In this document: one piece after another, positions 35,586 to 41,562 of the stretch
How the letters are laid out: every line of letters begins with the position of its first letter
Position numbering within the stretch: position 1 is the stretch's first letter
NCBI RefSeq assembly: GCF_001447785.1
Contig: NW_015172020.1
Location: 965,302 to 1,029,301, forward strand
From: Gekko japonicus
Taxonomy: Eukaryota
Direction: 5' to 3'
Length of the DNA: 64,000 bases
The notes under the pieces: model-generated
The model's input: the letters and a program-made list of their open reading frames with translations, nothing else
Databases searched by the model: none
Told to the model about the DNA's origin: nothing
Position numbers and translations under genes: made by a program

Positions 35586-35664
35586 GAGCCAAATGATGTA
35601 AAATAGATGACAATAGCACGCTGTGCAAAGATGACTCCCATCTATCACCCAATGCTGATGGCTC
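35586..35664 (+). ncRNA. Box C/D snoRNA, U83/U84 (SNORD117/SNORD84) family, copy A, DKC1 intron 7
   Basis: Terminal stem GAGCCA/TGGCTC, box C ATGATGT (35593), box D CTGA (35655), internal GCAC..GTGC hairpin, family element CATCTATCACCC as in recalled human U83/U84; ~90 nt upstream of the 3' splice site. Confidence 0.85.
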
Positions 35665-35757
35665 TTGTAGGCGCATCTTGCTGGGATTGGGGTCTTTGCA
35701 AAAACAACAGGACTCTTTGACTTGGCCATCTGCTTTTCCTTCGTACCCTGTTCTCAG

Positions 35758-35888
35758 GTATCTTCTGGGTGAGCTGTGAAGCTGGCACCTACATCCGAAC
35801 CCTGTGCGTCCACCTGGGCTTATTGCTGGGTGTCGGAGGGCAGATGCAGGAGCTCCGGCGAGTCCGCTCTGGGGTCATGGGAGAAAAG
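35758..35888 (+). CDS. DKC1: DKC1 exon 8 ([38 protein letters not shown])
   Basis: CAG|...|GTACGT, 131 nt. Confidence 0.97.
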
Positions 35889-35937
35889 GTACGTTGTAGA
35901 AGGGGCCAGCATGTCTTTGAAGCCCAAGGTTGTCTCC

Positions 35938-36074
35938 ATCCAAAGTGTTGAGTTCAGTCCAGGGCTATGTCCCCTGGTCTGGTAATTAAACTTTGGGACA
36001 GCATGTAGTTGGGAAGTGAGGAAGGTAGGGAGTTTACATTCTTGCCAGCTTCCTCTCTTCTTGCCCACACAGTT
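35938..36074 (+). ncRNA. SNORA36: H/ACA snoRNA SNORA36 (ACA36), DKC1 intron 8
   Basis: 5' hairpin TCCAAAGTGTTGAGTTCAGTCCAGGG...TAATTAAACTTTGGG matches recalled human ACA36; H box ACAGCA (35998), ACA at 36069; same intron as human. Confidence 0.9.
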
Positions 36075-36149
36075 GCCTGACAGCCTATTGAGATCAATTG
36101 CATGGGCTCCTTGGCTATACCTAAAGATGGATATAGCTAAAGGATGAAA

Positions 36150-36446
36150 GAAGGAGAAGAGAGAGAGAAGAGGAGATTGGATTTATACCCCGCCCTTCAC
36201 TACCCAAAGGTGTTTCAGAGCAGCTTACAAACTCTTTTCCCTTCCCCTCCCCACAACAGACACTCTGTGAGGTAGGTGGGGCTGAGAGAGCTCTTGACAG
36301 AAACTGCTCCTTTTCGAGAACAGCTCTTATCAGAACTATGGCTTGCCCAAGGTCATCCAGCCAGGTGCAAGTGGAGGAATGGGGAATCAAACCCAGTTCT
36401 CCCAGATCAGAGTCTGTGCACTGAACCACTACACCAAACTGGCTCA
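36150..36446 (-). mobile_element. Squam3-like SINE
   Basis: Homology to 8561-8848 family. Confidence 0.85.
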
Positions 36447-36609
36447 CCTGAAAGAAACCCAGGCAGCAGCAGACTTCCACTGAAACCCCGTGACTCTAGT
36501 AGAGAGCAGTTAGGTCATCGCCATCCTCTGCTGTGCTTGCACCACTTACCCCTTTGGCAAGGAGGGTTGGAATTATGAAGCCTGCAGTAGTTCTGTGGGC
36601 AGGAGAAGA

Positions 36610-37531
36610 GATGACAGCCACCGATGCTCACCGTTCATGAACTAGTGACTCTTTTCTTATGAAGGTTTATTTCCCTTGCAGTTTTTGGGGAGCTATGGGA
36701 AGATACCATAGATCAACCTTGTTGAACCTGGGGGCACATTGGAAATTTTTTTAGAGCAGGTAGTAGGCACAACAAAATGGCTGCCATGAGGTGGATATGG
36801 CCAGTTACAAAATGGCTGCCATGGGGGAGGTGCTGTGACCAATCTCAAAATGTTGCAATGTTCTGCAGAACGTTATGAGTATGGAAGGACATTAAGTGAA
36901 CCATGAAGCAAAATTTATCACGAATTTTGCCCTGTTCGGGGTTTGCAAACAGAAGTTCATGACATGTCTACCATCATGAATTTCCACTTACTTTTAAAGC
37001 CGTTTGTGGTGGTTCATGGTGGTTCACGGATGGAGTAGAAAGCAGGGGTTTAAATTAACTCCCTTTAAATCCCTGCTTTCTGTTCCCTGCAAAAGCAGCT
37101 CAGCTGTTTTGGGCTCTCTTGTGCCGTCCCCTTATAAAGGGACTGCACAAGACAGCCTGAAAAACAGCTGAGTTGGCAGGGAACAGTGTCCCCACTGGTC
37201 AGCTGCTCTGGGCTCTCCTGCGGTCCCTTTAGACAGGCTTGCTTAAAGCGGCTGCACAAGGGAGCCCAATACAGCTGAGGCTGTAGAGAGAAGTCTCTCC
37301 ACCAGCCAGCGTCAGTCTCTTTTGTGCAGCCCAAAACAGCTGACTGGTCGGGAGATGGATCAGCTGTTTTTTAGCTGTCTCCCACAGTCCCTTTAAAGTT
37401 TAAAGGGACTGTCCAAGATGGCCCATAACAGCTGAACGGCAGGGGAGCAAGCTGTTCCCCATAGCTCGTGGTTTGGTTCGTGGTTCAGCTATGAACCAAA
37501 CTGCATTTTCCCAGTTCATGCCCATCCCTAG
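36610..37531. mobile_element. Probable non-autonomous DNA transposon (…TGCCCATCCCTA end) with internal CAGCTG/CCCTTTAAA subrepeats
   Basis: Subterminal GGTTCGTGGTT repeats and internal repeats similar to 42920-43535. Confidence 0.45.
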
Positions 37532-38555: not shown

Positions 38556-38739
38556 ATGGCAAACAAAGGGCACGTTAATTGAAAACAGTGGAAATAGAGG
38601 ATGTTACAGTGACCACCCGCTTAGGGAAATCTGCTGGAGCTGACAACAGTGAATAGACTTTATTTAATGTATGTCTTGCCCTCCCTGCTGAAGCAGGCTC
38701 AAGGGTGGCTCAAGTCTCCTCCTCTGCCCTCCCGTTCAG

Positions 38740-38860
38740 GTGAATGCTATTTGCTACGGTGCGAAGATCATGCTTCCTGGTCTGTTGCGTTACGAAGACG
38801 GCATTGAGCTCAACCAGGAGATAGTTGTCATCACCACAAAAGGAGAAGCCATCTGCACAG
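38740..38860 (+). CDS. DKC1: DKC1 exon 10 (PUA domain, [23 protein letters not shown]...)
   Basis: CAG|...|GTGAGA, 121 nt. Confidence 0.97.
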
Positions 38861-39484
38861 GTGAGAGGTCAGCCGGCACCTCTCCTTCTAGACTCTCACA
38901 GTGTTTTAGCGGGAACTCGGATGGGAATGGCACTTCTCCGAGGAGTGCCCTCTGAAACTGCTTCACACCGATCATTCATTGTTTCCACTAGCCCGGAGCT
39001 GTGTTCCAGCTGGAGCTTCTAGGCAGAAAGGTCTTTCCCAGCCCTGCCATATTAGATCCTCAGGCTAAAGGTTCCAGAGATTGAACCTAGGGCTGCCTGC
39101 ATTCAAAGCAGGGGCTCCACTCATGAGCTGATGGGCCTGTCCTATACTTACATGAAAGGGTTGCCTGAACCACTAGTCTGTTAGGGTGAGAATCTGTGTT
39201 CAGAGGAATATCTTTTTTTCCCCCTTTTTTGCTGTGTTCTTCAGTTGCTCGAAGAGTGTCTTAAAGACTCTTGAGAGCTTTCTCTCCCTACTGAAAATGC
39301 TCTCCTGTCAACATCCTCTTCATCTGTGCAAATTGTGTTCAGAACTGGGAAGGACAGCAGTTTCCACGGGAAATGTCAGCGATTTAACATTTAATGTGGC
39401 TCTGGTGGCGCAGCTGACTAGCACTGATGGCACTGGAGTGACACCTAGTGGTAGATCAAACATATTGCGTATCTACTGCTGTTA

Positions 39485-39835
39485 GGTAAAAGGTAAAGGT
39501 TCCCTTGCTCGAAAGCCAGTCGAATCCGACTCTAGGGTTGCGGTGCTCATCTCCGTTTCCAAGCCGAAGAGCCAGCGCTGTCTGAAGACGTTTCCGTGGT
39601 CATGTGGCCGGCATGACTAAACACCAAGGCGCACAGAACGCTGTTCCCTTCCCACCGAAGTGGTCCCTATTTATCTACTTGCAATTTCTTGCTTTCAAAC
39701 TGCTAGGTTGGCAGGAGCTGGAACCAGAGACGGGAGCTCACTCCGTCATGCGGCACCCGGGTCTCGAACTGCTGAACTACTGACCTTCCACAGCCTGCAG
39801 TTCAGCGTCTTAACCACTTGAGCCACCGCAGCTCC
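39485..39835 (-). mobile_element. Sauria SINE full length
   Basis: Flanked by direct repeat TATCTACTGCTGTTA. Confidence 0.9.
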
Positions 39836-41014
39836 TATCTACTGCTGTTACTCATGGCTTCTTGTTGTATGGCCCTTCAGAGTGGGAAAGTGGCCAATGC
39901 GTTTGGTGAATAATAATGGTGTGGATGCCTGTCCCTGACGAGCAACTGCAAAGGGGCAGTTAACCTTTCTACCAAGCAGACTTACCTTCTCGGGGCCTGT
40001 ATGAAAGCTTTGAATGGGCGGGGAGGGCAATGGACTGAGGGTGCAAAGAGGAGTCCATTAAATCCTTGCCTGGGTGGCAGGGCTTCGTCTGCCCCCCCCC
40101 TGCCCTTGGAGGGTGTGTGAAGTGATGATGAAGTTTATCCATTCTCTGAGTGTTGCTGCTCTGCCCTTCCTGCCCCATCCAGGTCCCTGTTCTAGGGTCT
40201 TGATGCTTTGTGGCCTCCTGACTCCTCCTAGCCTCACAGTGTTCTGCTGGGGGTTCAGGGGGTGGCTTGGGGCTGCTGGCAGGGCCTGGGCAGAACTAGC
40301 AGGGCCAGAGCCCCTTCCTGTGGGGCTCTGGCTCAGCCAGGAAGAATGAAACTGTCTGATCACACACTGCTCTAAAGTGCCTGTCTCTGATGACAGACAA
40401 GTAATGAAGGTGGCAGGGGGGACATTTGCACCTATTCCGCTTTTTTAAAAAAATCCACGAAGATGTGTTCAGGGGTACACTTTCTACACCTAGTCGTTTC
40501 TATGCCTTGCTTTTCTCCCCAGTGGAAACTTCCTGTCCACGCAGCACCCTTTCTTATACTTTCAGCTTTTGTCTCCTGTCTTCCAGATGGCAGAAACTAA
40601 TTCGTACCTGTAAAGATCGCCCAGGGCGCAAGAGTTTGCAGCCCAGTGCCTTGGTAGAGAGTGTATTTATAACTTTGCTTGTGGGAAACTGAAGCTGTTC
40701 ATCATTGAAATTTCATAACTGTGCCAAACCGTGTAATTCTGCATCTTAACCAAGCTATAAATGCGTTTTATCTTGTTAAAGCAGGGTTTCCCAGAAGTGC
40801 AGGGGTTTTTTCCTCTCGTGGCTTCTAAACTCTGGTGTTTGCACGACCTGCTGTAACACAGAGGTAGAAGAACCCATAGGCTTGCTCTTCCCTCAGTTTA
40901 GTGGAGGATTGACCAAGTTTTGTCAGGCTGAAATAGCTGCTTGCATGGACATGGCCTGAGTTTGGGCGATACAGAAGGCTGTACTGCTTTCAGACGTTGC
41001 TCCTCTTCCGGCAG

Positions 41015-41133
41015 CCGTTGCCCTCATGACGACTGCGGTGATCTCCACGTGCGACCACGGTGTTGTGGCGAAGATCAAGCGTGTGATCATGGAAAGGGAC
41101 ACTTATCCTCGCAAGTGGGGGCTTGGCCCGAAG
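41015..41133 (+). CDS. DKC1: DKC1 exon 11 ([39 protein letters not shown])
   Basis: CAG|...|GTGGGT, 119 nt. Confidence 0.97.
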
Positions 41134-41482
41134 GTGGGTCTTGGGGGTGGTTTGGGCCAACTTGCCTGCAGCTGGGGTGGCAGATTACAGAGAAGGAGGT
41201 CTTTGGCTCGTTTGCTGAGGCAGGGGGTCTCAAGTGATCTGGATTTCAGGAGCTTAATCAGTCATCTGGTTTCTCCAGTGTTTTAGGCTGCATTAAAGGC
41301 GTTGCTTGGCCTGCTGGCTGATCACTGTTGTGTCAAATGCCGGGTGTCTGGCTCCACTCCTGCTTTGGGCTTTTTTTCTTTTCTTTTTTTTTATCAAGAC
41401 CAAGGTCTTGACTGCCTCATTATCTGTTAAACTAGTTGGTGCCCTGGCTGTAGCTTTTGCTTGTGGGTCTTCCCTCTGTGCT

Positions 41483-41562
41483 GAGCCACATGATGTCACT
41501 GTAGACTTCTTGAGCACTCTGTGCAGAGATGACACTCATCTACCACCCCAGACTGATGGCTC
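41483..41562 (+). ncRNA. Box C/D snoRNA, U83/U84 family, copy B, DKC1 intron 11
   Basis: GAGCCA/TGGCTC stem, box C ATGATGT (41490), GCAC..GTGC hairpin, CATCTACCACCC, box D CTGA (41553). Confidence 0.85.

Follow-up and report, generated by a model that had tools for sequence, protein, structure and literature searches.

Two U83/U84-family box C/D snoRNAs in introns of the Gekko japonicus DKC1 gene, with predicted pairing to 18S helix 34 and a possible snR4-like role

We analysed a 64,000-nt stretch of the Gekko japonicus genome (contig NW_015172020.1, forward strand, positions 965,302 to 1,029,301; hereafter the window) and found that two segments in introns 7 and 11 of DKC1, the gene for dyskerin, are genes for small nucleolar RNAs (snoRNAs) of box C/D type from the U83/U84 family (SNORD117/SNORD84). 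U83 and U84 were reportedly first described in 2000 as guides without complementarity to ribosomal RNA (rRNA). The element conserved in both gecko copies probably pairs with helix 34 of 18S rRNA, as modelled pairing and cross-link data for mammalian SNORD117 suggest, and we tentatively propose that both snoRNAs act there by analogy with yeast snR4, in the acetylation of cytidine C1337. The family is known, its locus was described for chicken in 2009 and the locus itself is ordinary; the value of the lead is that it connects the orphan U83/U84, which have no validated target, to the missing guide for one of the two cytidines, no more, that are acetylated in animal 18S rRNA.

Both segments matched the Rfam family RF00137 (U83/U84; gathering score 35) over the entire model, positions 1-78 of 78, with 57.4 bits (E 4.6e-09) for copy A and 66.0 bits (E 2.3e-11) for copy B. 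An initial annotation, made from the letters alone, had proposed this family, with an Rfam search as the check, and every element that it named was present in both copies at the positions given there. The mapped features, all on the plus strand, are as follows.

35586-35664, plus strand: copy A, RF00137 box C/D snoRNA, elements mapped
35586-35591 and 35659-35664, plus strand: terminal stem of copy A, GAGCCA and TGGCTC, mapped
35593-35599, plus strand: box C of copy A, variant ATGATGT, the last U of which pairs with the base preceding box D
35616-35626, plus strand: 4-bp hairpin of copy A between the degenerate D' and C', from folding and mapping
35628-35634, plus strand: C'-like box AAGATGA of copy A, assigned by consensus
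35639-35650, plus strand: conserved element of copy A, CATCTATCACCC, predicted to pair with 18S 1320-1328 and 1332-1334
35655-35658, plus strand: box D CTGA of copy A, mapped
41483-41562, plus strand: copy B, RF00137 box C/D snoRNA, elements mapped
41483-41488 and 41557-41562, plus strand: terminal stem of copy B, mapped
41490-41496, plus strand: box C of copy B, variant ATGATGT, mapped
41514-41524, plus strand: 4-bp hairpin of copy B between D' and C', from folding and mapping
41537-41548, plus strand: conserved element of copy B, CATCTACCACCC, mapped, the C variant with a predicted G-C pair to G1325
41553-41556, plus strand: box D CTGA of copy B, mapped

Rfam lists RF00137 under the name SNORD83, although its mouse members are Snord117 and Snord84, which can lead to confusion with RF00593 (SNORD83A/B), the family to which mouse Snord83b is assigned in PMC11863803. 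RF00593 gave no match up to E 5 in 27500-47000.

Because the local alignment of copies A and B scored 61 and the best of 2984 random 80-nt segments of the window reached 27, the likeness of the two copies is beyond chance, and the conserved core was found at these two places only within the 64-kb window. The boxes, the stem, the hairpin and the core are intact in both copies and the spacers have diverged. Box C, box D and the terminal stem of both copies are able to form a C/D motif, whereas D' and C' are degenerate and flank the hairpin of 4 bp. In all five family sequences the final base of box C forms a pair with the base preceding box D, in one of them after substitution at both positions, a compensation that among five related sequences is by itself a weak sign. 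The element ATCTAYCACCC lies between C' and box D in both copies; at its T/C position copy B carries C, and the other eight sequences compared carry T. The four bases adjoining box D are variable, and the conserved core starts at the fifth. In all five members the terminal stem sequence GCCA is invariant, although stems usually drift, and it is complementary to 18S 1333-1336 beside C1337.

It is very improbable that either copy, or both, is a relic that this species no longer expresses. Copy B ends approximately 415 nt from the 3' splice site, and in minimum-energy folding neither copy did better than shuffles (z -1.40 and -0.33), which would fit a relic; C/D snoRNAs ordinarily fold weakly, however, and the intact boxes, stem, hairpin and core beside diverged spacers argue against relics. 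By eye, the chicken orphans GGoCD5 and GGoCD6 have the same stem, boxes, hairpin and core as copies A and B, and they are the orthologues of the two gecko copies. Reverse transcription PCR (RT-PCR) amplified all 20 of the chicken orphans, GGoCD5 and GGoCD6 included (PMC2653536), which also speaks against relics.

To assign a target to the conserved element, we scanned rRNA only, using non-vertebrate sequences (42 18S loci and rRNA sets of 4464 and 5395 nt); a vertebrate-type 18S pattern had 0 matches in the genome contig collection. At least 40 contigs (L001-L040) that are filed as bacterial genomes carry eukaryotic 18S rRNA sequence and are contaminants. The 18S numbering was anchored on the Snord33 guide for U1326, which puts the target UAGUU of the 5' guide (GS1) of yeast snR4 at 1343-1347, as expected.

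For the 13-nt core of the five members, 18S helix 34 was the best site in both rRNA sets, and it also ranked first for copy A alone and for copy B alone. In all five, nucleotides 5-13 upstream of box D are predicted to pair with G1320-G1328, the T/C position standing opposite G1325; beyond a 3-base bulge, 3 to 5 further pairs follow from A1332, and C1337 is left unpaired (5 of 5). The predicted duplex contains 1-2 G-U pairs. The initial annotation had expected a G as the partner of the T/C position, which in this model is likely G1325, and a contiguous target, GGGUGGUAGAUG. The GGGUGGU half of that target fits 18S 1320-1326 and the remainder does not: searched as one contiguous target, GGGUGRUAGAU was matched exactly in none of 7 non-vertebrate rRNA stretches, which come from 4 loci. 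A 28S stretch, GGGUGGUAAAC, was also considered as the target of the core and was rejected at the second rank, 2.5 kcal/mol worse, in the animal-like set.

Pairing energy alone proves nothing; the weight of the helix 34 assignment lies with independent cross-link data for the mammalian orthologues. Human SNORD117 and SNORD84 are hosted by DDX39B and have no target listed in the table of PMC4696412, as the initial annotation had said, and both are entered as target-unknown in PMC3349704; no target is established for the family, yet two cross-linking tables put SNORD117 on 18S helix 34. Supplementary Table 4 of PMC5389715 places SNORD117 on 18S G1320 with 3 chimeric data sets, 26.5 reads and a PLEXY value of -19.9, in human cells only; the same row gives RiboMeth-seq as NA and prior methylation evidence as 0. 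In Table S1 of PMC11863803, five of the six SNORD117 peaks (2 mouse, 3 human) fall on the helix 34 segment and the sixth falls in 28S rRNA, and the mouse peaks centred on this strand are those of Snord32, Snord33 and Snord117. SNORD13 was likewise caught on helix 45 in this assay (PMC11863803), so acetylation guides are visible to it.

Several results weigh against the assignment. Among column-shuffled cores, 11 of 40 and 14 of 40 reached a site of equal or better energy; when the entire D arm was used, helix 34 came first among 18S sites in no more than 12 of 15 cases; the SNORD17 positive control missed its site with 22-nt guides, and 12-nt cores placed it at ranks 1 and 2; and the 18S and 28S sequences scanned are not those of a vertebrate. 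The SNORD117/G1320 row in PMC5389715 has a probability of 0.21, and the 2 rows of SNORD84 in that table are other, low-probability sites. SNORD84 has 0 rows in Table S1 of PMC11863803, the peaks of which are approximately 50-70 nt wide, with a Snord110 peak tailing into the segment. Because of this width, the cross-link peaks cannot fix the pairing register. Neither SNORD84 nor SNORD117 is named in the main text of 10.1101/2021.07.22.451324, and the available portions of PMC12848939, PMC13547379 and PMC13651129 hold nothing that bears on their target.

The 5' half of copy B (41498-41521) has its best predicted partner in two large-subunit rRNAs at a 28S stretch near the SNORD37 and SNORD88 sites, and the sole 28S cross-link peak of mouse Snord117 lies in the same stretch (PMC11863803). 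As a family target for the 5' half this 28S site was rejected; it fits copy B only and ranks 15-109 in the other four members.

We consider it rather improbable that the helix 34 match is incidental and that the element pairs with another RNA (a tRNA, snRNA, mRNA or 28S rRNA), binds a protein or folds onto its own 5' spacer. Such a reading would fit the equal performance of shuffled cores, the one SNORD117 peak of six in 28S rRNA, at the site that ranks first for the copy B 5' half, and the fact that the element can pair with its own spacer over 7 bp in copy A and 5 bp in copy B with the T/C position matched by A/G, a match within the snoRNA itself that would account for the T/C change with no target at all. 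The fold-back is weak, however (-7.3 and -4.8 kcal/mol), and by eye is not kept in the mouse sequences; the 28S site ranks low in the other members; and two independent cross-link studies and an unbiased ranking converge on one segment. We therefore retain pairing with 18S helix 34 as the probable reading.

If the element pairs with helix 34, one reading is that the two snoRNAs act as ordinary box D guides and direct a 2'-O-methylation of 18S G1320 at a low level or under certain conditions. G1320 is the predicted partner of the fifth base upstream of box D in all five members, PLEXY predicted exactly G1320 for SNORD117 (PMC5389715), and box C/D is intact together with its adjoining pair, which shows one compensatory change. 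Against this, G1320 would be the last pair of the duplex, and nucleotides 1-4 vary freely and are mostly unpairable (pairing pattern '||.|' in copy A and '....' in copy B against non-vertebrate 18S rRNA). A methylation guide tolerates at most 2 unpaired nucleotides between box D or D' and its near-perfect duplex (PMC5464676). Pairing of U1319 with the base that lies 4 nt upstream of box D is possible in 3 of 9 sequences (2 of 5 computed, 1 of 4 from chicken and mouse by eye), and position 1319 is U in all 42 non-vertebrate 18S loci. No RiboMeth-seq signal for G1320 is listed in the table of PMC5389715, and G1320 is missing from the novel sites that PMC11863803 names as highly methylated. With G1320 at the very end of the duplex and U1319 mostly left without a partner, a canonical methylation role is a poor fit, and we regard it as improbable.

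A different role is suggested by yeast snR4, whose second guide (GS2), downstream of C', pairs with 18S 1264-1271, and which is needed for N4-acetylcytidine at position 1280 (ac4C1280; PMC5464676). With the yeast-to-human 18S offset of 57 (Um1269/U1326, Gm1271/G1328, C1280/C1337), the GS2 target corresponds to human 1321-1328. In all five members an internal guide downstream of C' that matches the GS2 target is predicted, with an energy not above that of shuffles. On this strand of yeast 18S rRNA, snR40, snR55 and snR4 overlap (PMC5464676). According to PMC9670809, a human homologue of snR4 is yet to be identified, and PMC13433802, a paper of June 2026, names, in the text available, a human guide for C1842 only and none for C1337. 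Loss of SNORD13 leaves C1337 acetylated, and fly SNORD13 functions with a single antisense element (PMC9226516). The nematodes C. elegans and S. carpocapsae do not carry the helix 34 acetylation (PMC9226516). A literature search with incomplete coverage of subscription journals found no paper that links SNORD117 or SNORD84 to acetylation.

By analogy, the proposed course of events would be as follows. Copies A and B would be processed from the spliced DKC1 introns into small nucleolar ribonucleoproteins (snoRNPs), their expression being suggested by the RT-PCR of the chicken orthologues. The conserved element would then pair with 18S helix 34, as the SNORD117 cross-links suggest, with nucleotides 5-13 upstream of box D on G1320-G1328, three rRNA bases bulged and nucleotides 14-17 on 1332-1335, leaving C1336 and C1337 unpaired. 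Held in this way, the strand might allow NAT10 to acetylate C1337, as with snR4, instead of being guided to ribose methylation. Two redundant copies are kept in gecko, chicken, mouse and human, and the loss of a single copy would likely go unnoticed.

The differences from snR4 count against this proposal. Loss of the snR4 5' guide GS1 (AACUA, target 1286-1290, human 1343-1347) abolishes acetylation (PMC5464676), and AACUA before box C is absent from the family, the 5' ends of which are GCCA(A/C). For the 5' GCCA the rRNA downstream of C1337 offers at most a weak pairing (-5.2 to -6.2 kcal/mol), in a shifted position and in competition with the terminal stem, no better than that with its own 3' end (-6.2 to -6.5 kcal/mol). 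A search of the family for another conserved guide to the rRNA downstream of C1337 found none; the invariant GAC, a possible partner of 1338-1340, is at the same time the end of box C'. The family RNAs compared are 71-78 nt long and the snR4 models are 155-242 nt long with a pseudoknot, and in place of the long helical insert between D' and C' of snR4, which was not found, there is the 4-bp hairpin only. Because these snR4 tests (5' guide and insert) fail, we suggest that the family may work like snR4 and do not claim that it belongs to it.

We therefore hold the snR4-like role of both snoRNAs at C1337 as a tentative proposal, drawn by analogy. The broader suggestion that U83/U84 are the missing animal counterpart of snR4, in the form of a compact 76-nt RNA with one internal guide, two redundant copies and at least three hosts (DKC1, DDX39B and a KH-domain gene), is possible and slightly more doubtful still. 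A somewhat unlikely but serious alternative is that the snoRNPs pair with 18S 1320-1328 without modifying it, as chaperones of helix 34 folding or as competitors of SNORD32 and SNORD33 during 40S assembly. The same cross-link and ranking evidence applies to such a role, the missing GS1 and pseudoknot would need no account, and PMC11863803 reports low methylation scores at novel sites generally and suggests methylation-independent roles. What it leaves as coincidence is the exact match to the snR4 GS2 target and the missing guide for C1337. Overall, we rank the snR4-like role first, with the non-modifying chaperone close behind, followed by another partner, the methylation of G1320 and relics.

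If the snR4-like role is true, the orphan target and the guide for C1337 are one gap and not two, a small snoRNA encoded in an intron suffices to guide acetylation even when it has no 5' guide, and the acetylation of helix 34 could be removed with the essential enzyme NAT10 left intact.

The host of both copies is DKC1, as the initial annotation had proposed; a 15-exon model with an open 517-aa frame and GT-AG introns, the splice sites of which come from the gene model and not from reads, supports introns 7 and 11 as their positions. Pfam domains TruB_N, DKCLD and TruB_C_2 matched on exons 5 and 8 (two of the three exon pieces scanned). The gene carries six snoRNAs, in the order SNORD17, RF00137, SNORA36, SNORD17, RF00137, SNORA56. 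A mixed host of C/D and H/ACA snoRNAs had been annotated with four of them; the mixture stands, and the count does not, the two SNORD17 copies having been overlooked. The gene, the two host introns and the remaining snoRNAs are as follows.

28004-45813, plus strand: coding span of the host gene DKC1 (dyskerin), with 15 exons and 517 aa, from the exon model and Pfam
34503-34736, plus strand: SNORD17 copy in intron 6 with degenerate boxes (Rfam RF00567, 48.6 bits, cut-off 45)
35264-35757, plus strand: DKC1 intron 7, host of copy A, the snoRNA ending 93 nt from the 3' splice site (exon model)
35938-36068, plus strand: SNORA36 in intron 8 (Rfam RF00340, 57.2 bits, cut-off 43)
40117-40363, plus strand: SNORD17 copy in intron 10 (Rfam RF00567, 125.8 bits)
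41134-41978, plus strand: DKC1 intron 11, host of copy B, at the above distance from the 3' splice site (exon model)
42231-42359, plus strand: SNORA56 in intron 12 (Rfam RF00417, 71.8 bits, below the cut-off of 80, E 1.8e-12)

The six form a series that occurs twice, with SNORD17, RF00137 and an H/ACA snoRNA in introns 6-7-8 and the same set in introns 10-11-12, and the intervening exons are not mutual copies. In the intron 6 SNORD17, boxes C and D' are degenerate and the guide is mostly kept; this copy may be decaying.

Chicken DKC1 already shows the arrangement, so it is not the novelty that the initial annotation had taken it for: cluster 34 of the 2009 study contains the same six snoRNAs in the same order, with GGoCD5 and GGoCD6 as unassigned orphans for which the listing gives no mammalian cognate and no target (PMC2653536). 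The two chicken orphans resemble each other more than gecko copies A and B do. At the corresponding locus, GGoCD5 was reported in platypus and lizard, GGoCD6 in lizard as well as frog, and human, mouse and opossum were reported to have neither (PMC2653536). Our literature search, again with incomplete coverage of subscription journals, found no paper in which the copies in DKC1 are identified as U83/U84.

A pattern scan of metagenomes returned 13 loci, of which 3 match RF00137 and 10 were dropped without a match. Because the search pattern forced both, the conservation of the core and of the 3' end in these three is circular. Locus L054 has an RF00137 member in DKC1 intron 11, flanked by SNORD17 and SNORA56, and together with GGoCD5 and GGoCD6 it bears out the conservation in other sauropsid DKC1 introns that had been predicted. 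Locus L048 is a more distant DKC1, likely that of a fish, with the RF00137 copy in intron 10 (1116-1193), where gecko has SNORD17; this copy has a canonical box C and a compensating base before box D. Locus L047 has its member (3000-3070, minus strand) inside an intron of a KH-domain gene without a DKC1 match, which looks like a third, non-vertebrate host. Another intron of the same gene (1300-1377, minus strand) contains a snR61-like C/D snoRNA (44.3 bits, cut-off 45).

Because the chicken, platypus, lizard and frog loci, L054 and L048 all place the family in DKC1, this gene was probably the original host in vertebrates, with DDX39B as the derived mammalian one. A change of host gene, as the initial annotation had it, is one possible course and a reciprocal loss another, and the direction that it implied is probably reversed. 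C/D cargo in this gene has a precedent because the fly minifly/Nop60B pseudouridine synthase gene also hosts intronic C/D snoRNAs (PMC1821038).

Elsewhere in DKC1, a 660-bp tandem duplication (29881-31200, 8 of 660 positions mismatched) holds exon 2 twice, at 29941-30005 and 30601-30665. Because an extra exon of 65 nt would shift the frame, this is an assembly artefact, an allele pair or a case in which a single copy is spliced. Intron 1 contains a further tandem duplication of 174 bp (96%) at 28638-28985.

Other features of the window are a single-exon rhodopsin-family receptor gene (4070-5347, minus strand; Pfam 7tm_1), a fragment of a LINE-type repeat reverse transcriptase (14974-15417, minus strand; Pfam RVT_1) and a GC-rich single-exon gene with an N gap (20605-21711, plus strand), which had no Pfam hit and is a putative F8A/HAP40-like gene. 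A gene with SH3 and guanylate kinase domains (approximately 48000-58600, minus strand) is likely MPP1, and a degenerate 5S rRNA-like copy with an insertion (62988-63114, minus strand, 41.7 bits) is likely a pseudogene or a 5S-derived repeat.

Among known systems, SNORD83A/B (RF00593, host RPL3, 18S A468) has the name alone in common with the gecko copies and is a different family with a known site. SNORD13/U13 and snR45 (ac4C1842/1773) are likewise box C/D RNAs that pair imperfectly near a CCG cytidine and do not guide methylation; unlike the gecko copies, they target helix 45 and have a 5' antisense extension, and human SNORD13 is independently transcribed (PMC9670809). Yeast snR4 is, like the gecko copies, an orphan-type box C/D RNA with a guide downstream of C' for the same 18S strand, where it overlaps two methylation guides; its size, essential 5' AACUA and pseudoknot are not seen in the gecko copies, Rfam scans of the window gave no snR4 match, and homology is not claimed. 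Human SNORD117 and SNORD84, the RF00137 members, share with the gecko copies the boxes, the stem, the hairpin, the core and the organisation as a paralogue pair in one host, which in human is DDX39B and in gecko is DKC1.

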